From a virus, in IMG/VR virus record IMGVR_UViG_3300034683_000192, positions 135,881-199,880 of that record: a stretch of DNA of 64,000 nt, one strand, 5' to 3'. A program made the position numbers and the translations under genes. Within the stretch, counting starts at the first letter, position 1, and every line of letters begins with the position of its first letter. Below the pieces are notes generated by a model. It was not told where the DNA came from, ran no database searches, and worked only from the letters and a program-made list of their open reading frames with translations. Of the stretch, positions 3,186 through 60,530 are shown in pieces.

Positions 3186-3195
3186 GTAATATATA
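3186..3195 (-). promoter_or_regulatory. Putative early (virion RNAP) promoter TATATATTAC
   Basis: Matches the phiKZ early consensus TATATTAC; intergenic, upstream of the gp68-like gene; motif recurs 8 times on the minus strand. Confidence 0.65.
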
Positions 3196-15436: not shown

Positions 15437-17086
15437 CTATCTGTGACGGATGGTGCGACCACCCCAGATGCCAGAGCCCTGGCGAATGCTCTGCCCACGA
15501 CGAGTGTGGATGGACGTACGACCCATGATCGCAGAGATGTTGCGACCGCGGTCGAAGTAGGCGCCGATGCTGATGGGAGCATTGGTGTTGTAGTCGGTAC
15601 GAACGCGCAGCGAGCTGCCGGCGGCCTTCATGATGGCTTCGAGCGCATCTTCACGCAGCGGGCACATGTAGGTCATGTACAGCGGCTGGACATTCTTGTA
15701 GCCGAGGTCACGAATGGAGTCGATCCGGCGCAGCGCATCGTTGTCGTAGGTGAGGAAGTCCCCGAGCAGACGACGATCGCTGGTAGCCTGAATGGCATCG
15801 AAGTAGTCGATTTCGCGGGAATCGACCATGCGGCCTTCCTTGTTCACCAGAGTGGTGAGCATGCCGATCGGCTTGTCGAACATGGTATCCGGACCGTCAG
15901 TGATGTGATTGCTTCCGAAGAATTCAGCGAAGTCTTCGAGAATCGGGCCCTGCATCTTTTCGTTGGCCATGGCATACATGCCGGGCAGGGTCACGCGACC
16001 GGGCTGGATGTCGACCACGACGATCGGTTCGAACATGCGGTCACGGACGAAGCGATTGAGCTGATCGATGTTGGTAAGTTCTTCGGGACGACCATCTTCA
16101 TCGAACCACAGATTGCCGAGGTTCGGGCTGTTCGGGCCGAAGGATTGGAACGGAGACAGCCAGCCCTTATGGGTGATGGCGTAGTCCAGGAAGTTGGCCA
16201 GCAGAACGGGGAACATCCGAGAATGACGGATGTAGGAGGCCCATTCGGTGAGGTGCAGGATCGGCTGGTACATGAGGTCGCGGCCTTCGTAGACTTCATA
16301 GAAGTCCGTGAAACCGCCCATGGCGCCGAGTTCGATGTATTCGTCGCGACGATCACGATCATCACGATTACGATCACGGTCGCGAACATCGCGATCACGA
16401 TCGTCCGTCAGCATGTTCATGACGATGCCGACGTCGATGCGGCCGAGCACCTTGTGCGGGGTCAGCGCGCCGATGACGTCGTGTACACGGTTGGGATCGG
16501 TGACGATGTCGTAGCGGCATTCCTTCACCATCTTGTAGGTGATGTCGCTGTAGAGACCGCCGGTGAGTGCTTCCTTCACCGTGTCGAACCACTGGGTCGG
16601 CTTTTCGTAGTCGCCACGCAGAACGACGTAGACGTCCAGCAGCGATTCGGCATTGCCGATTTCCAGAGCGATGCGGAATTCGTCATGCACGCGGGAGACG
16701 TAGTCTTCGGTACCGCCGCGATAAGCATCGGGGCGCATGTGTTCTTCGAAGATCAGCGCGACGGCGATGCCGTCCTTGACGAACAGTTCGGCGCTGGCGG
16801 CGGGCATACGCACGCTCGTGATGCCGAGTTCCGGAGCCTTGGTGAAGGATTCCTTCAGCTGCGTCAGGAAGGTCGTACCTTCCGGCGACAGTGCCTGGTG
16901 CTGAGCCTTGCTGCGCACGTAGTGGATGAGCGATGCACCGCTCGAACCAGACGAGGAGGAAGCTGCACGTTCGGCGCGAGTGTCGTCCTGAACGGGCGAC
17001 ACGTTGTCATGAACGGATCCCACAGGGGATGCGATCGGATGACCCTGGGTCTTGTCATTGTCATCGATGGCGAATTCAACGGGCAT
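15437..17086 (-). CDS. chmA: Chimallin (major phage nuclear shell protein, PhuN/ChmA)
   Basis: 549 aa immediately upstream of the beta' gene (conserved chmA-gp55 synteny); extreme G/C-ending codon bias; own early promoter and terminator; disordered N-terminus; NLGNL motif. Confidence 0.78.
   Translation of the reverse strand: MPVEFAIDDNDKTQGHPIASPVGSVHDNVSPVQDDTRAERAASSSSGSSGASLIHYVRSKAQHQALSPEGTTFLTQLKESFTKAPELGITSVRMPAASAELFVKDGIAVALIFEEHMRPDAYRGGTEDYVSRVHDEFRIALEIGNAESLLDVYVVLRGDYEKPTQWFDTVKEALTGGLYSDITYKMVKECRYDIVTDPNRVHDVIGALTPHKVLGRIDVGIVMNMLTDDRDRDVRDRDRNRDDRDRRDEYIELGAMGGFTDFYEVYEGRDLMYQPILHLTEWASYIRHSRMFPVLLANFLDYAITHKGWLSPFQSFGPNSPNLGNLWFDEDGRPEELTNIDQLNRFVRDRMFEPIVVVDIQPGRVTLPGMYAMANEKMQGPILEDFAEFFGSNHITDGPDTMFDKPIGMLTTLVNKEGRMVDSREIDYFDAIQATSDRRLLGDFLTYDNDALRRIDSIRDLGYKNVQPLYMTYMCPLREDALEAIMKAAGSSLRVRTDYNTNAPISIGAYFDRGRNISAIMGRTSIHTRRGQSIRQGSGIWGGRTIRHR
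16341..16406 (-). repeat. Degenerate hexamer repeat (acgatc)n encoding DDRDRDVRDRDRNRDDRDRRDE within chimallin
   Basis: Directly visible in DNA and protein. Confidence 0.85.
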
Positions 17087-41984: not shown

Positions 41985-42614
41985 TTATCCGCGTTGAAGT
42001 TCAAGGATCTTGTCGGCAAGAAGTTCTGCGAATTCGTCGGAATCGAATGCCAACTTGGTCATGTAGATCAGCTTTTTCACAGATTTGTTTACCGCGCAGC
42101 TGAACCACTTTCCTTCCTGTGAATACGGAAACGGTTTCCCTTCATCGAGCGAAATATGCTCCTCTTCCGCTATTGTCCGGTACGTCTTGATGACACAATC
42201 CGTGACACCACCGAAGAAGTCTCTCACATTACCAGGAAGGAGGGTATTCGAATGAACCGTGAACTCGAACGACTCCATGTCTTTGGAGCTCACATGTGCC
42301 ACAGGTACCGACACGTAGAAGTTCTGCGGCTTGGTGAATTCGATGCCGTAATTATTCAGACGTTTCGCGAATGCTTCAGTGAACCGGATACCGGCATTCG
42401 AGTCATCATACAGCTGATCCATTTCCGCCCCGACGAAAACGATGTCATCGTCGTGGAATACACCAGGTCCGACCGAAGGTTCCGGTGAGTCCACGAAATA
42501 GATTCCGTGATCTTCCAGAGATTCAATCAGTTTGATGAAGGGATCCACTTCCACTTCCAGTTTCTTGGGGAAAGCGAAAATGGTACACGACAGATTGATT
42601 TTGGGTTCGTTCAT
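41985..42614 (-). CDS. Hypothetical protein (tandem family member 4)
   Basis: 209 aa, GGAGG RBS. Confidence 0.8.
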   Translation of the reverse strand: MNEPKINLSCTIFAFPKKLEVEVDPFIKLIESLEDHGIYFVDSPEPSVGPGVFHDDDIVFVGAEMDQLYDDSNAGIRFTEAFAKRLNNYGIEFTKPQNFYVSVPVAHVSSKDMESFEFTVHSNTLLPGNVRDFFGGVTDCVIKTYRTIAEEEHISLDEGKPFPYSQEGKWFSCAVNKSVKKLIYMTKLAFDSDEFAELLADKILELQRG

Positions 42615-42643
42615 GAGAATCCTCCGAGATTCGTCGTTGGGTG

Positions 42644-43210
42644 CTATCGGGTGTAGTTAGCGATGACTTGGACGAGTTCATCAATCGCTTGTACGTATTC
42701 CGATTCCTTTGCGAAAAGTGTTCCAGCTACTCGAGTATCGTCGCAGACAAGAACATGATCGTCGTTTTCGACAGTACGATAAAATTTCATCAACCCGAAC
42801 GTGTAGATGATTTCCTTCGTGACACGCTGAATCAGTCCTGATGGTCTGTTCCAATCGGAACGACAAAATTCGTGCAACACACTTCCAGTCGTAATCATGC
42901 CGCAGTATTCGTCGTTACCAAGACCATACGAGTAGTCGATGCAGTGCTCGGAGAACTTCGTTGTCACCAGATGCGAGAAGCGAAAATTCTTGATTTCGTC
43001 GCATTTGGTTTCGAGAATTCCGAGACAAACAATTGGAACAGAGTCGATCATCACTGTTTGTAGGGTATCTTTGTGCGAATATTCCCCACAAATATGTGGT
43101 TGTGATGCGATCTGCTCGAATATCTTCTCGACGTCGTTCTCCGTAAATTCCTTATCGAAAGATACCGGAAACTCAAATGTCGTGAGCTTGATCGATCCGT
43201 AGTTATCCAT
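42644..43210 (-). CDS. Hypothetical protein (tandem family member 3)
   Basis: 188 aa. Confidence 0.75.
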   Translation of the reverse strand: MDNYGSIKLTTFEFPVSFDKEFTENDVEKIFEQIASQPHICGEYSHKDTLQTVMIDSVPIVCLGILETKCDEIKNFRFSHLVTTKFSEHCIDYSYGLGNDEYCGMITTGSVLHEFCRSDWNRPSGLIQRVTKEIIYTFGLMKFYRTVENDDHVLVCDDTRVAGTLFAKESEYVQAIDELVQVIANYTR

Positions 43211-43217
43211 TACCGAT

Positions 43218-43772
43218 TTAACCCCTTTCAGGTGAAACGGTGACTTTGATGATTGCTGCGAGTTCCATGATGTGTTCCCCGATATTTCTCACCGGAGCAG
43301 TGATAATTGCTTCGATGTGGAAATAGTCGAAGATGGTGATGTATGCATTCGGATGTCCGGAATCAGTAGATGCAGCCAATTCCATCGCTTTTTCTTCGAC
43401 GCTATTGTTCAGCATCCCTAGCTGCCGAAGACGATGACATTGTTGATAAAGGTACTGGAGATGGAACATGTTCCCTTGTTTACGAAAATCCGATCCTTTC
43501 ACGATCGGAAGTTCGTTCGCTATGAATATTCCTTCGAGACCACGTTGAAAATGGAACTGATGATTGACTGTTTCGCTGATCACTCCAAGAACCAGGATGG
43601 GTTCATCGTGAATGACGTATACCGGACTGCACGGAGCATGCTGTGCACTTACCGTAAGAAGTTCCGACCCCGCGATTTTGTCAAAAATCGGACCAACGTG
43701 ATCTTTGGTGAGACCTTCGACTTTCAGTGGAAACGATATCGTTGTGTTCAGATTATCGATCGTAGTAAACAT
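43218..43772 (-). CDS. Hypothetical protein (tandem family member 2)
   Basis: 184 aa, GGAGG RBS. Confidence 0.75.
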   Translation of the reverse strand: MFTTIDNLNTTISFPLKVEGLTKDHVGPIFDKIAGSELLTVSAQHAPCSPVYVIHDEPILVLGVISETVNHQFHFQRGLEGIFIANELPIVKGSDFRKQGNMFHLQYLYQQCHRLRQLGMLNNSVEEKAMELAASTDSGHPNAYITIFDYFHIEAIITAPVRNIGEHIMELAAIIKVTVSPERG

Positions 43773-43797
43773 CGTTACCTCCGGTATCGAGGGTTAT

Positions 43798-44379
43798 CTA
43801 GGAACTTGCGTTTTCCATCAGATGCTTCACGAACGGCATCACGAATTTTTTGTGTTCGTATGCCGATTTGGTTACGTAGATCGTTTCGAAGATTTCGTCA
43901 TCCCCGATCATCGTGAAGTAGTTTCCTTCCAGAGGAATATCCTTATCTACGGCATTGCGGTGAAGGTTCATTTCGAGATCGATGAACTGCATGATGTCAT
44001 CAACCTTCGTATCAGGCATCATCAGATCGAGTTTGTTTTCTCGATAGGTGTTCATCGCACGGAGATCGACTGTCAGAAATTGGCAGTATTTCGGATTTTT
44101 CGATTCGAGGATCTTGATGTTCCCGCCGCAAGCTACGGAGTTGTCAGAGATCATCTCGGCGAATTCCTTGGTGAAATAGTACCCATGTGCAGTACCGATA
44201 CCGACGATTACCACTTCTTCGTCGTGGGTGAATGACGAAATCCACACTCCGAGCTGTTCGTAGTTGCTGTTGAAGATTCCCTGATCATTGAATTGATCGA
44301 TAGCTTCCCTGATGACATCGTCATGAATGTCCACCACGAAAGGAAATTGTTCAGCAGTGATTTCTGTGGAAATTTTCAT
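43798..44379 (-). CDS. Hypothetical protein (tandem family member 1)
   Basis: 193 aa, ATGA coupling to the upstream gene. Confidence 0.75.
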   Translation of the reverse strand: MKISTEITAEQFPFVVDIHDDVIREAIDQFNDQGIFNSNYEQLGVWISSFTHDEEVVIVGIGTAHGYYFTKEFAEMISDNSVACGGNIKILESKNPKYCQFLTVDLRAMNTYRENKLDLMMPDTKVDDIMQFIDLEMNLHRNAVDKDIPLEGNYFTMIGDDEIFETIYVTKSAYEHKKFVMPFVKHLMENASS

Positions 44380-44855
44380 TTGAAGGCTCCGTTGTTGCGA
44401 AGTTTTTGAATTTCTTCAATAGACGTTGCATTTCTGATTGCAGGTGCACGCAGGAACAATTCGTGGTAACCACGTTTCTCGAGAATCTCATTATACGCTT
44501 CACATCGGTATATCTCCAATTCGTCAGATGATAGAGATTCTTCCGAGTCCGGTAAATCGATTGATATACTACTCGCGATTGCACCACGTACAATCGCATC
44601 GATTTTTTCTTTTGTGGTCGCGTGATATACATCATCCGAGTACGTCTGAATTTTGTAGGGATCTTCGAGTGTTTTAACAATCGTATTCCATGCATGAATA
44701 CGATGAAATTCCAGATCCGCATCTAGGGAATTTGTTGACTTGTGATGTTTGGACATTCCCCACACGAATAACCACACCGACACAACTAGTGCTACCGTAC
44801 AAATGACGATAGCTTCCAGTAATGGGTGCATTGACATCATTTCTAAAAATTCCAT
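44376..44855 (-). CDS. Single-pass membrane protein
   Basis: ATG at 44855 with AGGAGG RBS; N-terminal TM helix AIVICTVALVVSVWLFVWG. Confidence 0.75.
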   Translation of the reverse strand: MEFLEMMSMHPLLEAIVICTVALVVSVWLFVWGMSKHHKSTNSLDADLEFHRIHAWNTIVKTLEDPYKIQTYSDDVYHATTKEKIDAIVRGAIASSISIDLPDSEESLSSDELEIYRCEAYNEILEKRGYHELFLRAPAIRNATSIEEIQKLRNNGAFK

Positions 44856-44872
44856 CACACCTCCTTTAGAAA

Positions 44873-44902
44873 CGAGAGGGGTGGGATATCCCACCCCTCT
44901 CG
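44873..44902. terminator. Hairpin after the 729-aa gene
   Basis: Perfect palindrome cgagaggggtgggatatcccacccctctcg. Confidence 0.7.
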
Positions 44903-44929
44903 GATTGATCGTTAATGCGGTGCCGTCAG

Positions 44930-47119
44930 TTAGACGGAGGATTCACGAATGGCGATGCCCACGTTCTTCACGTAGTACCGTTCATTGGACGAACGAGAGA
45001 TCAGCGTGAGCGAATCGTTCAGGTCCACGCAGATTTCGTAGTTCTTATCCTGGTCGATCCGGAACAGCTTGGTGTTGCGCTGGTCACCGGACGGTTCGAT
45101 GGTGAGTTCTTCGTCAGTTTCGCGATCAACGATCACCATGTTGACGAGACTCACGGCTTCGACGCTGATGACCCCATTGAGATCCTGCAGCGTGGTCGAA
45201 ATCCAGTTGGACTTCTTGTCCTGGTTTTCGTACTGGGTCACTACGTTGATCGGGGCTCGGGTTTCTTCCTTGGTCGGAACTTCCGCTTCTTCCACGACGA
45301 TGTCGTCTGCTTCCAGCTCGATCGGATCGCTGTCACTTTCCGGATCGTCCGCAGGTTCCTGCATCATCGCATCCACGACTGCCGGGGCAGGGTCAGCGAA
45401 CGACTGGTCATCGACGATGTCTTGAACGAATGCGTCATCCAGCGGCAGACTGGTATCCATCTGCACAGGTTCGGACTGTTCCGAGTCCTGAATGGGGGAA
45501 GGCTCGGAAGCTTCCTGATCCTTGCAGGTGCAGTTGTCGCACGGAGTTTCGCAGTCGCAGACGGAACCTTCGTCTTCGGTGGAAATCGTCACCTGATCCG
45601 GATCAGTGTAGACGATTGAAATGGACTGATCCCCGTTGTCCACGACTTCGAGCCCGGTGGGGACATATTCGTCCTGATAGGGTTCATCGGTCGATTCCGT
45701 CGGAGTGACATCAGCAGCATGCTTCACGACCGTTTCGGTGATCGTCGAAAGCGGTACTTCGATCGTGGGCTGTTCTTCGACCGCTTCGGTTTGTGCGGTC
45801 GTAACTTCTTCCGACGCGATGACCTGCGGACGATCTTCAGTCGGAAGGGTCTGCACCTGTTCGGTGATGTTCGACAGCTCCTGCGCAGGAACTTCGGGTT
45901 CCTTTTCGGCAGGAATGGGAGCTTCTTTGGCGGGTGCGGGTTTCTTCACTTCCTTCTGCTTCTTCGGCTTGGATTCCTTATTGACCAGATGGTCAGGAAT
46001 CAGCTCTTCTGCCGGAATGTCGGCGACTTCATCTGCCGACAACTGACGATTTGTCGACTTGGCGAAACGGCAGATGTTCGTGATGGTCGTCTGACCGACT
46101 TCCCCACGTTCCTGATCCTTCTTGTAGATCATCTTCAGCAGGTCACCCGGGAGAATGGCCTTGCCGAAAATGGTCCGTGTGAATTGATTCAGGTACCTGG
46201 CGAAGAATTCGGACATGGCGGTCACGTCGTCGTTCGACAGGATCCAGCATTCGTAGAAACGCTGCACATCGATGGAGATGGGCGCATTCTTGCCGTAGTT
46301 GTTGTAGAGCAGCCTTGCCTGGCACAGGAATTCGCCGGGGCGCGCCTGGTGGAAGCCGAACTGCATCCAGACGAATTGATTCCCGTTCATGTGCAGGTCA
46401 TTGGCATCATTGGCGATCTGGGTCATGAACACGGAGAAGTTCGCGCAATCGTACACGACATCCACGTATTCGTCACCGATCCCCGATTTTTCGAGGGTAT
46501 GCTTCGAATCGTCCGCGCCGTATACGTTGGCGTACACGTCACGAGCTTCGTCGCGAGTTACGTCGTGGAATTGTTCCACGTACATCGCCTCCGTGCAGTT
46601 GAAGGTGAACAGTTTCTTGTAGAGGGCATCGAACGCATTCTTGAGCGCAGGATGCACCGCTATCAGAGAATCCAGCCACGAAGAGTCGAGACCGCGCTTG
46701 CCAGCGACATGCCCCTTAACCAGGGACAGCTTTGCGGTACCGAACTGTTGTTCTTTCTTGCAGGGTTCGGTCGACTCGATGCGGTAGACGGCGAATCTGG
46801 CCGAGCCCATGCGGTGGTAACCCACGAGCACCATGCAGCCGGGCCAGATATCCACGGAAGCGTGGAGTGAGTTGAAATTTCGGAACGGAAGAATCTTCGC
46901 GTGCGACGGATGGCCACCAGGTCCGGTTACCACGATGGCGAATCCGCTGTTGTCACGTTGACCACCCATCTCGAAGAGACCGCCACGCCCACCGGTATTG
47001 ATCTCGATTTCCTGCGGAAACTTCGGATGCTTTTCCGTCAGAAATCGAAAGGAGTGGAAGTAGCCGGAGTGCAGAGCCTCTCTCCATTTCTTGGGTGCCC
47101 CATTCTTACGATCGTACAT
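44930..47119 (-). CDS. Large early hypothetical protein with long acidic disordered linker
   Basis: 729 aa, GGGAGG RBS, strong G/C-ending codon bias, own promoter and terminator. Confidence 0.85.
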   Translation of the reverse strand: MYDRKNGAPKKWREALHSGYFHSFRFLTEKHPKFPQEIEINTGGRGGLFEMGGQRDNSGFAIVVTGPGGHPSHAKILPFRNFNSLHASVDIWPGCMVLVGYHRMGSARFAVYRIESTEPCKKEQQFGTAKLSLVKGHVAGKRGLDSSWLDSLIAVHPALKNAFDALYKKLFTFNCTEAMYVEQFHDVTRDEARDVYANVYGADDSKHTLEKSGIGDEYVDVVYDCANFSVFMTQIANDANDLHMNGNQFVWMQFGFHQARPGEFLCQARLLYNNYGKNAPISIDVQRFYECWILSNDDVTAMSEFFARYLNQFTRTIFGKAILPGDLLKMIYKKDQERGEVGQTTITNICRFAKSTNRQLSADEVADIPAEELIPDHLVNKESKPKKQKEVKKPAPAKEAPIPAEKEPEVPAQELSNITEQVQTLPTEDRPQVIASEEVTTAQTEAVEEQPTIEVPLSTITETVVKHAADVTPTESTDEPYQDEYVPTGLEVVDNGDQSISIVYTDPDQVTISTEDEGSVCDCETPCDNCTCKDQEASEPSPIQDSEQSEPVQMDTSLPLDDAFVQDIVDDQSFADPAPAVVDAMMQEPADDPESDSDPIELEADDIVVEEAEVPTKEETRAPINVVTQYENQDKKSNWISTTLQDLNGVISVEAVSLVNMVIVDRETDEELTIEPSGDQRNTKLFRIDQDKNYEICVDLNDSLTLISRSSNERYYVKNVGIAIRESSV

Positions 47120-58465: not shown

Positions 58466-58497
58466 CCAGGTGGCACCCTCATCGGGGTGCCACCTGG
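58466..58497. terminator. Bidirectional terminator between convergent genes
   Basis: ccaggtggcaccc...gggtgccacctgg. Confidence 0.75.
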
Positions 58498-58503
58498 CAT
58501 TCA

Positions 58504-59568
58504 TTACTGCAGGTTCTTCTCGGGGGAATTCGATGACGGCATGCCGCCGCCGTCGGATTCGTCGAGCTCGACCTTGATGGCGGGGATGATCACCGGCGTC
58601 TGGCCACCGGCTGCGGGTACGGAAACCGCGCTCGGCGTGGTGATGGTCTCTTCGCCGTTCAAGATCACGCGGCGCCCACGCCGTGCGCGAGGAGCGGCAG
58701 CCTGCTGAACCGCTTCTTCGGGCTTCTCGGCACCGGAAGAAACCGCAGCGGCCTGTTCTTCAGCCGCTTCGGTCGCTTGCACCTGGGGAGCATTCGGATC
58801 GGTGCCGGGTACGGAAGGCTTCGCGAAGATGTCTTCGATGTTGACGTCGGACGTGTCAACGTCAACGTCGTTGACCTGCTCCGAGCTGACGAGCTCGTCA
58901 GCGAGGCTCTCGAGAGCCTCGCTGATCTTGTTGCCGACAAAGTCGGCTTCAAGGTTGAGTTTCTTGGCCTGCGCCGAAAGCCGCTTCGTCAGCCACTTGA
59001 CTATGGCTGCGTTGCGGTTGACCGTCTGCGGCTGGCTGATCAGTTCCGCCAGTTCGGCGAGTTCCTCTTCGGGAACTTCACCCACCTTGAGATGGTTGAA
59101 GTTTTCCGACTTGACCATCGACGCATTCAGCTTGTGCGAGGATTCGGCCTCACCAGGCACCGCCATCGTCACGATGACGCAGGTCTGCGCGCAGACCTGC
59201 TCGGTGAGTACGACTTCCTGCGCGGTGATGTTGATGACCCTGCCGCGCAGCTTACTGTTCACGACGACTTTCTTGGCGACGAGGTCGAGGGACTCCTGGT
59301 ACGGGTACCAGCCATCGACGACGATGGTGTCGGCATGCACCATCAGACGGTTGCCGAACAACTCGTTGAATATCGAGTTGTTCAGATAGACGGTTTCGCC
59401 CACCTTCATGGACGTCTTTTCGCCACGGCAGTCCGTGGCGTATTCCCCGGACAGCATGACCGAGGTCCCGAGATGATCGACGTTCTTCTTCGCATCGGCT
59501 TCGCGCATCTTGGCGAAAATGCCGGTGGGGGTCTTGGACGCTTCGGGGGTGGTTACGGTGATCTTCAT
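58504..59568 (-). CDS. Highly codon-biased early protein; N-terminal beta-solenoid (bactofilin-like), acidic disordered C-terminus
   Basis: 354 aa, AAGGAG RBS; repeats VHADTIVVDG / LVAKKVVVNS / ITAQEVVLTE / VCAQTCVI. Confidence 0.8.
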   Translation of the reverse strand: MKITVTTPEASKTPTGIFAKMREADAKKNVDHLGTSVMLSGEYATDCRGEKTSMKVGETVYLNNSIFNELFGNRLMVHADTIVVDGWYPYQESLDLVAKKVVVNSKLRGRVINITAQEVVLTEQVCAQTCVIVTMAVPGEAESSHKLNASMVKSENFNHLKVGEVPEEELAELAELISQPQTVNRNAAIVKWLTKRLSAQAKKLNLEADFVGNKISEALESLADELVSSEQVNDVDVDTSDVNIEDIFAKPSVPGTDPNAPQVQATEAAEEQAAAVSSGAEKPEEAVQQAAAPRARRGRRVILNGEETITTPSAVSVPAAGGQTPVIIPAIKVELDESDGGGMPSSNSPEKNLQ

Positions 59569-59801
59569 GATAAGGCTCCTTTCGATTGATTTTGTTCATC
59601 CTGGTGGAAGACTAAAAAGAACTTGCGGCTTTGATATTTAGTTCGTAGGAGGATGCTCCACAATGGAAGCATCCTCCGATCCAAACCACAAGTTACGGGA
59701 GATCTCCCGATGAAATCTCCCGCATCCTTCCCTGAATTGACTGTACGTTTTCCCACGATGGTACTAACGTGAAGGAAGGAATTTTCTAATTCATCAAAAC
59801 T

Positions 59802-59811
59802 GTAATGTATA
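59802..59811 (-). promoter_or_regulatory. Putative early promoter TATACATTAC
   Basis: About 230 nt upstream of 59568; downstream of the terminator of the previous gene. Confidence 0.55.
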
Positions 59812-59919: not shown

Positions 59920-60396
59920 TTAACCGCCCATGGCCGCCTTGATGCGGTCGCTGATGGCGGTACGATCGGCCTTCGAGAACAGACGCGAAGTACGCATGTC
60001 CAGCTTGGTACGGCCATAGGAACGAATTTCGTTCCCGGTGATGTTGTCCTTGCGCAGCTTGGTGCTGATCTGGGAAACGACCATACGGCCGTCTTCCACG
60101 TCCACCTTCATGACGGTGGTGAAGGGTGTTTCGTTCAGATCCGTGCCGGCTTTCTTGGCATCGGCGATGCGCGATTCGGTCGCACGGGTAACGACTTCGA
60201 CGGCGCCCTTGGCGAGCAGGTCGTTGGCGTTGTGCATCTGTTCGAGGGCCTTCATCGGGATGCCGGCCTGACCGAAGAATGCGCGAGTATCGGCACGCTT
60301 CAGGGTCATGACGCCCTTGTCATTGACGGAGGCACGTTCCTGGATGAACTTGATGGCATCTTCGATGTTCGCGATGGTCCCGGTAACTTCAGACAT
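59920..60396 (-). CDS. Small, highly codon-biased early protein, possible nucleoid/DNA-binding protein
   Basis: 158 aa from ATG 60396 with GGAGG RBS; basic C-terminus with RKDNITGNEI. Confidence 0.8.
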   Translation of the reverse strand: MSEVTGTIANIEDAIKFIQERASVNDKGVMTLKRADTRAFFGQAGIPMKALEQMHNANDLLAKGAVEVVTRATESRIADAKKAGTDLNETPFTTVMKVDVEDGRMVVSQISTKLRKDNITGNEIRSYGRTKLDMRTSRLFSKADRTAISDRIKAAMGG

Positions 60397-60520: not shown

Positions 60521-60530
60521 GTAATATATA
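60521..60530 (-). promoter_or_regulatory. Putative early promoter TATATATTAC
   Basis: About 125 nt upstream of 60396. Confidence 0.65.

Follow-up and report, generated by a model that had tools for sequence, protein, structure and literature searches.

A conserved-position orphan gene in a phiKZ-like jumbo phage record

We analyzed a 64,000-nucleotide stretch of viral DNA (the window), which forms the final 64 kb of the 199,880-bp IMG/VR record IMGVR_UViG_3300034683_000192 (estimated completeness 73%), and concentrated on one orphan gene within it, whose protein product is here designated P0001. A first-pass annotation of the window had proposed that this gene encodes a bactofilin-like cytoskeletal protein and that it is monocistronic and transcribed from an early promoter. 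The analysis presented here indicates that the gene is, as judged from sequence comparisons, lineage-specific and belongs to a clade of uncultured phiKZ-like jumbo phages with a multisubunit RNA polymerase (RNAP) and without detectable PhuZ, that it is probably transcribed early and very highly expressed, and that P0001 is not a detectable member of the bactofilin family, to which its likeness would extend at most to fold class. The features of the locus are collected in Table 1.

Table 1. Features at the orphan gene locus, in window coordinates. GC3, G+C content at third codon positions; pLDDT, predicted local distance difference test score; AF2, AlphaFold2; ORF, open reading frame; P0006, protein encoded at the corresponding position of locus L188.
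Feature	Position	Strand	Basis and remarks
GC-rich 13-bp hairpin	58466..58497		Read from sequence; between the convergent RuvC-like gene and the orphan gene, just 3' of the stop codon
Coding sequence of P0001, stop codon included	58504..59568	-	354-aa ORF, ATG at 59568
Acidic Ala/Pro-rich tail, aa 231-354, with basic RARRGRR patch	58507..58878	-	Composition; low-confidence model
NIEDIF, short acidic-hydrophobic motif, aa 243-248	58825..58842	-	Read from sequences; apparent recurrence in the orthologues
Three-helix segment, aa 166-230	58879..59073	-	AF2 helices 167-177, 183-203 and 208-228, pLDDT 51-69
N-terminal domain, aa 1-165, predicted beta-solenoid (low confidence)	59074..59568	-	ESM Atlas and VIA-align
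Repeat-containing core of the beta-rich N-terminal domain, aa 59-135, four motifs with ~18-19-residue spacing	59164..59394	-	AF2 strands; ungapped P0006 alignment
Structured leader, ~230 nt, hairpins at ~59694-59724 and ~59648-59677	59569..59801	-	RNA fold
Shine-Dalgarno sequence AAGGAG	59576..59581	-	7 nt 5' of ATG; read from sequence
Promoter-like motif TATACATTAC, class TATAYATYAC	59802..59811	-	233 nt 5' of ATG
Co-conserved upstream neighbour, 158 aa, GC3 0.76, own motif copy at 60521-60530	59920..60396	-	Orthologues in L188 and L189

The record encodes a major capsid protein (MCP) of the phiKZ type (PF25620 PhiKZ_MCP, E 3e-23) together with split genes of a multisubunit RNAP, represented by beta and beta' fragments (PF00562, E 1.3e-17; PF00623, E 1.1e-11), the combination by which we recognize phiKZ-like, RNAP-encoding jumbo phages. 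Its family-B DNA polymerase shares only 26-30% identity with the enzymes of cultured chimalliviruses, and a RuvC-like resolvase gene, convergent with the orphan gene, is also present. By this gene content the source of the record is a phiKZ-like jumbo phage of deep divergence. The distance between the orphan gene and the MCP gene is 2.7 kb, and the surroundings include the genes for a DnaB-like helicase, the DNA polymerase, and the RuvC-like resolvase as well as one ligase-like and one SMC/AAA-like gene. The series gp50-gp51-gp52 of phiKZ (DNA polymerase, a 239-aa gene, and a 348-aa head protein encoded in the opposite orientation) was considered as a positional counterpart and rejected, gp51 and gp52 being dissimilar to the genes of the window.

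Using an alignment of the DNA polymerase (A2), 80 IMG/VR loci were retrieved, two of which, L188 and L189, keep the gene order around the orphan gene, with the MCP, DNA polymerase, and RuvC-like genes on one strand and a ~350-aa gene followed by a ~157-aa gene on the other. L188 is part of G019, a genome of 220,982 bp with direct terminal repeats (100% complete), its DNA polymerase is 71% identical, and the ORF in the slot of the orphan gene encodes 349 residues (P0006) with a GC3 of 0.62 versus a background of ~0.47. L189 is part of G020 (156,029 bp, 54% complete), in which the DNA polymerase is 37% identical and the slot ORF encodes 361 residues (P0016) with a GC3 of 0.59 versus ~0.33. The slot proteins of both relatives are similar to P0001 in size and architecture and have raised GC3, with an identity to P0001 of only ~20%. 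The 158-aa neighbour has orthologues in both loci (35% identity, E 5e-32 in L188; 21% identity, E 5e-4 in L189), and the RuvC-like protein of L189 is 37% identical to its counterpart, such that the position of the orphan gene between the RuvC-like gene and the 158-aa partner is conserved in three lineages. Because the gene persists across lineages whose DNA polymerases are as little as 37% identical, we argue that it has a needed function. Comparison of the record with G019 identified BLAST partners for 116 of 195 ORFs, with a median identity of 50%; at ~20% identity, next to flanking genes with 57-71% identity to this relative, the orphan gene is, in this comparison, among the most diverged genes that still hold their place.

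P0006 was not found by BLAST from P0001 at database scale. Pairwise comparison of the N-terminal domains aligned aa 59-128 of P0001 with aa 56-125 of P0006 without gaps (Smith-Waterman score 64 versus 30 ± 5 for shuffled sequences, 0/1000), and in this alignment the repeats keep their inward/outward residue pattern. Scans for close relatives with P0006 and P0016 returned only the query proteins themselves. A 363-aa ORF adjoining a DNA polymerase gene in a further locus, L193, was found to be unrelated to P0001.

Codon bias and upstream signals point to abundant and probably early expression

The GC3 of the orphan gene is 0.786 in a background of ~0.43 and is the second highest in the record, standing between that of the MCP gene (0.799) and that of a 549-aa gene considered a chimallin candidate (0.742), which bears out the earlier claim of a codon bias on par with MCP or chimallin. 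Upstream of the gene lies a copy of the motif TATAYATYAC, of which the window contains seven copies (at 3186, 17190, 20350, 34064, 47174, 59802, and 60521) versus 0.38 expected, and the genome 18, exclusively on the minus strand. Further copies precede the genes for dCMP deaminase, RNAP beta, topoisomerase II, and the chimallin candidate, and an exact copy is absent from two virion genes of high GC3, those for MCP and for a 360-aa protein resembling internal head proteins. A conserved AT-rich motif of ~10 nt is found at early promoters of RNAP-encoding jumbo phages (PMC7598289). As TATAYATYAC fits this class and precedes the deaminase, RNAP, and topoisomerase genes, with no exact copy at the MCP and internal-head-protein-like genes, early transcription of the orphan gene can reasonably be inferred. 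A scan for sigma-70 promoters gave no match. The motif can be extended to G-TATAYATYAC-N5-TG(A), and several other genes of high GC3 whose products are unknown are also preceded by copies; one copy precedes an endolysin-like gene (genome 89656-90324) by just 7 nt, an odd location for an early promoter.

The leader between the motif and the start codon contains two near-perfect hairpins of 12-13 bp and folds with a predicted energy of -81.8 kcal/mol versus -59.3 ± 4.8 for shuffled sequences (z -4.7), and it matched no Rfam family above threshold. A strong hairpin is also present in the L188 and L189 orthologues, where it lies between an AT-rich promoter-like element and the start codon. As read from these sequences, the hairpin leaders suggest conserved post-transcriptional control or RNA stabilization. 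Hairpins follow both the orphan gene and the gene upstream of it; that at 58466-58497 has no T-run and was hence not listed by a terminator scan. These hairpins are consistent with the monocistronic layout described in the first-pass annotation. The early class of the promoter is assigned by analogy.

P0001 combines a repeat-containing N-terminal domain with helices and a disordered tail

The first-pass annotation had described four consecutive repeats followed by a helical segment and an acidic, Ala/Pro-rich tail. The repeats are present at aa 77, 96, 114, and 125 in the form h-x-A-x-x-h-h-h, where h is a hydrophobic residue. Expressed as a regular expression, the repeat motif occurs four times versus ~0.09-0.19 occurrences expected in shuffled sequences, a comparison that has to be read with the post hoc definition of the pattern in mind, and the generic pattern A..h.h reached only P=0.02-0.04. 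Pairwise window scores between repeats were no higher than those of shuffles. The remaining architecture is likewise as described, with predicted helices over aa 167-228 and a tail modelled at low confidence, in which aa 236-354 comprise 15% Ala, 10% Pro, and 10% Glu and carry a net charge of -10. A 94%-identical copy of P0001, P0002, differs from it mainly at aa 207-235.

Common to P0001, P0006, and P0016 are a beta-rich region with small-residue/hydrophobic repeats, helices, and a disordered tail of differing composition, which is rich in Ser/Thr/Asp in P0006 and has an Ala/Pro-rich end in P0016. In all three lineages a hydrophobic autocorrelation lag of 18-19 residues is among the strongest (z 1.66, 2.23, and 2.43). 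The tails are otherwise unalignable, yet the NIEDIF motif of P0001 has counterparts in DIPDLF of P0006 (aa 303-308; L188 12467-13516) and NIVDFF of P0016 (L189 12526-13611). DIPDLF and NIEDIF resemble the DDDIPF tip of single-stranded DNA-binding protein (SSB), and DIPDLF also the C-terminal peptide LDIPAFL of FtsZ, a likeness that we take as a lead only.

Family-level searches do not place P0001 among the bactofilins

No homologue of P0001 other than the 94%-identical P0002 was recovered from a word-indexed search of 5.8 billion proteins, conducted with the whole protein and with aa 40-145 at E<=10, or from an exhaustive phmmer search of 1.84 billion representatives. There was no match by tblastn among 50,697 phage records, by pattern scans of IMG/VR and JGI metagenomes, or by searches at E<=10 of individual genomes (phiKZ, PS119XW, Xoo-sp14, and four related IMG/VR records), so that P0001 has no sequence relation to named proteins of the chimalliviruses searched in this way. 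A Pfam scan returned nothing at E<=10, the PDB sequence search gave no match with either the single protein or a profile, the ESM Atlas feature search gave no usable match, and PHROGs yielded just three weak rows of unknown function (best E 0.009). In these searches neither an enzyme nor a known family was detected for P0001.

The bactofilin family was examined by several approaches, every one of which failed to support membership. PF04519 matched neither P0001 nor a six-frame translation of the genome at E<=10. A bactofilin hidden Markov model (HMM) built from 20 domains of 10 bacterial genomes and searched with all filters off (--max) scored P0001 at 3.1 bits, a value attained by 30 of 500 shuffled sequences. 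Profile-profile comparison by hhalign of P0001 plus P0002 with bactofilin gave probabilities of 0.3-0.9% (P 0.06-0.13), and addition of the orthologue brought no gain (0.3-1.0%); genuine remote homology normally improves with added sequences. We used a hydrophobic period of lag 6, corresponding to three strands of ~6 residues per winding, as the operational signature of bactofilins. Lag 6 was the top autocorrelation lag in 6/6 bactofilin controls (z 2.6-3.6), whereas it reached z=1.19 in P0001, and the autocorrelation of the orthologues peaks at lags 19, 13, and 18.

Toastrack domains, the mini beta-solenoids of DUF4097 (PF13349) and DUF2807 (PF10988), were rejected because our own HMMs scored P0001 at -1.2 and -0.5 bits, below the shuffle median with more than half of the shuffles scoring as high, and because hhalign gave probabilities of 0.1-0.2%, versus 96.8% for the control comparison of DUF4097 with DUF2807. 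For families of two-partner secretion (TPS) and haemagglutinin-repeat proteins, P0001 had no Pfam match.

Structure predictions lean towards a small beta-solenoid

The fold models rest on a single sequence, as the 94%-identical P0002 provided no usable alignment. In the full-length AF2 model the N-terminal domain has a pLDDT of 25-30 and is uninformative, and the helices at aa 167-228 are the sole region above 50. Separate modelling of aa 1-165 gave a pLDDT of 44 (50-63 for aa 58-135) and placed strands at 75-84, 94-103, 111-121, and 130-135. Foldseek with this model retrieved nothing below E 1.6, in a weak list rich in beta-helices that includes the bactofilin TtBac (6ria, rank 4) and MinC. 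Among the 50 rows listed by VIA-align against 48,161 chains, beta-helix or solenoid-repeat proteins account for nearly every one and for 13/13 of those at Z>=5, headed by the filamentous haemagglutinin (FHA) secretion domain 1rwr (Z 7.4, 125 residues, 3.7 Å) and including HpmA (6.3), HxuA (6.2), and VacA (5.5). The bactofilin BacA (2n3d) aligned at Z 5.5 with a root-mean-square deviation of 3.1 Å over 88/103 residues and TtBac at Z 5.3 over 69/90, followed by CAP-C and MinC. In VIA-align, Z scores of 7-8 are typical of unmatched models, such that it is the homogeneity of the list that carries weight and not the scores. The ESM Atlas model (pLDDT 0.48) aligns best, over aa 13-163, to haemagglutinin-repeat clusters and DUF583/bactofilin clusters (template modelling (TM) score 0.52-0.53), with 0.53 for the haemagglutinin-repeat type and 0.52 for an archaeal DUF583/bactofilin cluster, and DUF2807 and DUF4097 clusters are among its weak structural neighbours.

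We take the agreement of two low-confidence predictors on a beta-helix as a lead and not as proof, and on these models we somewhat favour an N-terminal beta-solenoid. Of the likeness in repeat spacing to the beta-helix of bactofilins noted in the first-pass annotation, the small beta-solenoid survives weakly in the models, while homology to bactofilin was never found. P0001 and the bactofilins (PF04519/DUF583) have in common a stand-alone beta-rich domain of ~100-130 aa with ~18-residue repeats, strings resembling h-x-A-x-x-V-x-V, and disordered terminal tails. The bactofilin domain is a right-handed beta-helix of about six ~18-residue windings with a triangular core; for such a fold in P0001, the AF2 pLDDT of 44, the superposition on bactofilins at Z 5.3-5.5, and the TM score of 0.52 all stay under the levels taken as confident. 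Unlike bactofilins, P0001 has no HMM or profile-profile similarity to the family and no three-strand lag-6 signature, and it possesses an extra three-helix segment and a ~120-aa tail; alignment of the domains would require two long insertions. The best matches to the AF2 model, the right-handed beta-helices of FHA, HpmA (4w8q), HxuA (4i84), the MinC C-domain, and the CAP C-domain (Z 4.3-6.3 apart from 1rwr), are secreted adhesin or toxin domains or regulators of division or actin, unlike P0001, which has no signal peptide or TPS motif and matches the TPS type with Z scores within the noise band.

A scaffold or adaptor is the preferred reading among several alternatives

The interpretation that we prefer, tentatively and at somewhat less than even confidence, is that P0001 serves as a scaffold or adaptor that has no enzymatic activity and is produced early in infection and in abundance. 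The N-terminal domain of ~130 residues, beta-rich and built of ~18-19-residue repeats, would probably form a small right-handed beta-solenoid through which the protein associates with itself or stacks, and the NIEDIF/DIPDLF/NIVDFF motif of the tail would recruit a partner. On this interpretation the protein would be located in the cytoplasm or at the shell. Abundant early non-virion proteins of chimalliviruses, such as chimallin (ChmA) and the shell or cytoplasmic factors associated with it, are among the closest known parallels, as the chimallin candidate of the record has the same motif and the same strong shift towards G/C-ending codons as the orphan gene. Several observations weigh against the scaffold interpretation. 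Both fold models are of low confidence (pLDDT 44 and 0.48), the VIA-align Z scores of 5-7 fall into the common unmatched band, Foldseek E-values exceed 1, and neither the internal repeat similarity nor the periodicity of any single protein is significant alone. The similarity of P0016 to P0001 is marginal (P=0.02-0.055), P0016 shows none to P0006, and it is linked to them through synteny, size, architecture, and GC3 rather than sequence. In addition, an abundant protein inside the virion would also account for a GC3 equal to that of MCP and for the proximity to the MCP gene.

Such a protein, packaged with the DNA, might be an internal head protein, an inner-body component, an ejection protein, or a scaffold; we consider this alternative unlikely. 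The internal head proteins of T4 and phiKZ are acidic, helical, disordered, and fast-evolving, as is P0001, and P0001 contains many S/A/G-x-E sites like those cut by phiKZ-type prohead proteases, although such sites are not discriminating. The promoter-like motif speaks against a virion protein, as the orphan gene has the motif found at the deaminase, topoisomerase, and RNAP genes, of which the MCP and internal-head-protein-like genes have no exact copy, and P0001 is unlike the internal head protein of its own genome, phiKZ gp52, and any PHROG of the head category. The 360-aa internal-head-protein-like gene lies outside the window (genome 44414-45496, minus strand; GC3 0.748; no early-type motif; internal-head-protein PHROGs at E 1e-5), and paralogy with P0001 was rejected as the two have no similarity. 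The motif, the high codon adaptation, and the rapid divergence would suit an effector of host takeover or counter-defence, synthesized in quantity early in infection and evolving fast to track a host target, and the variable residues cluster at aa 207-235 even between copies that are 94% identical. Counter-defence genes are usually gained and lost, however, whereas the orphan gene keeps its place down to 37% DNA polymerase identity, and no PHROG or Pfam match to an anti-defence family was found, the padloc library not having been searched; we regard an effector as unlikely.

The neighbouring helicase, polymerase, resolvase, ligase-like, and SMC/AAA-like genes, the succession of beta-rich domain, linker, and acidic tail, and the structured ~230-nt leader would be in keeping with an accessory factor of DNA replication or recombination, SSB-like or mediator-like, whose tail motif docks replisome partners and whose leader permits translational autoregulation as in T4 gene 32. 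Both fold models are solenoid-like and not OB (oligonucleotide/oligosaccharide-binding) folds, no SSB or gp32 family was matched, NIEDIF is internal and not C-terminal, and the divergence is far above that expected of a core replisome protein, making this alternative quite improbable. Less probable still, in our estimation, is that P0001 is an extremely diverged homologue or a convergent analogue of bactofilins that polymerizes independently of nucleotides, as filaments or sheets, and would supply a nucleus-forming phage devoid of PhuZ with another kind of cytoskeleton or scaffold. For BacA and TtBac, target coverage ranks with the best of the fold matches, the DUF583 cluster reaches a TM score of 0.52, the domain size and the disordered Pro-rich tail are alike, and P0001, P0006, and P0016 each carry an (I/V)F(A/G/S)K-like motif close to the N-terminus. 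Set against this are the negative family-level tests and the equal or better matches of the haemagglutinin/TPS, MinC, and CAP beta-helices. Searches with the Pfam model and phiKZ PhuZ as queries found no PhuZ or tubulin in either the record containing the window or the complete relative G019, with phiKZ positive (2.6e-8) and Asesino correctly negative as controls. PhuZ is also absent from a clade that holds 24% of known chimalliviruses, and active positioning of the nucleus was not seen in the PhuZ-less chimallivirus Asesino (PMC11724907), so that a missing PhuZ does not require a replacement filament. The absence of PhuZ is therefore compatible with the idea of an alternative filament and is no evidence for it. 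If P0001 were such a polymer, it would represent a second, unrelated kind of phage cytoskeleton, in a tubulin-less nucleus-forming clade.

Neighbouring genes and a variable block

The 549-aa chimallin candidate (window 15437-17086, minus strand) lies directly upstream of the RNAP beta' gene, an arrangement that matches phiKZ, in which gp54 lies upstream of gp55. It has no PDB, Pfam, or PHROG match, its BLASTP comparison with phiKZ gp54 gave E 0.32, and neither it nor the MCP found a tblastn match among the 50,697 phage records, so that it agrees with chimallin only in this position, its TATAYATYAC copy, and its GC3. A 35%-identical homologue of the candidate (P0004) is present in a Logan assembly. 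The 158-aa neighbour of the orphan gene shows only faint similarity to the OB domains of IF-1 and RNase R (PDB E 0.04-0.05; Pfam E 0.17) and may be a small OB-fold nucleic-acid binder. Elsewhere in the window, BLAST finds counterparts in G019 for the genes flanking a block of six ORFs (41985-47119, minus strand) but none for the block itself, which includes a 729-aa gene of high GC3 with a copy of the motif (44930-47119) and appears to be a variable region that encodes abundant unknown proteins.

Implications

The orphan gene stands as an interesting orphan and not as a demonstrated cytoskeletal element. If the predicted fold holds, P0001 and its two positional orthologues would constitute an undescribed small protein family, present in three lineages that are all metagenomic, in which a mini beta-solenoid is combined with helices and a long disordered tail. 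By codon bias P0001 ranks, together with the capsid protein, among what are probably the most abundantly expressed products in this deeply divergent clade of phiKZ-like phages, and the combination of a fixed position with an identity of only ~20% suggests a protein that is functionally required but either loosely constrained or diversifying. In a clade that lacks PhuZ, an abundant self-assembling protein of this kind would be an obvious candidate to organize the infection.

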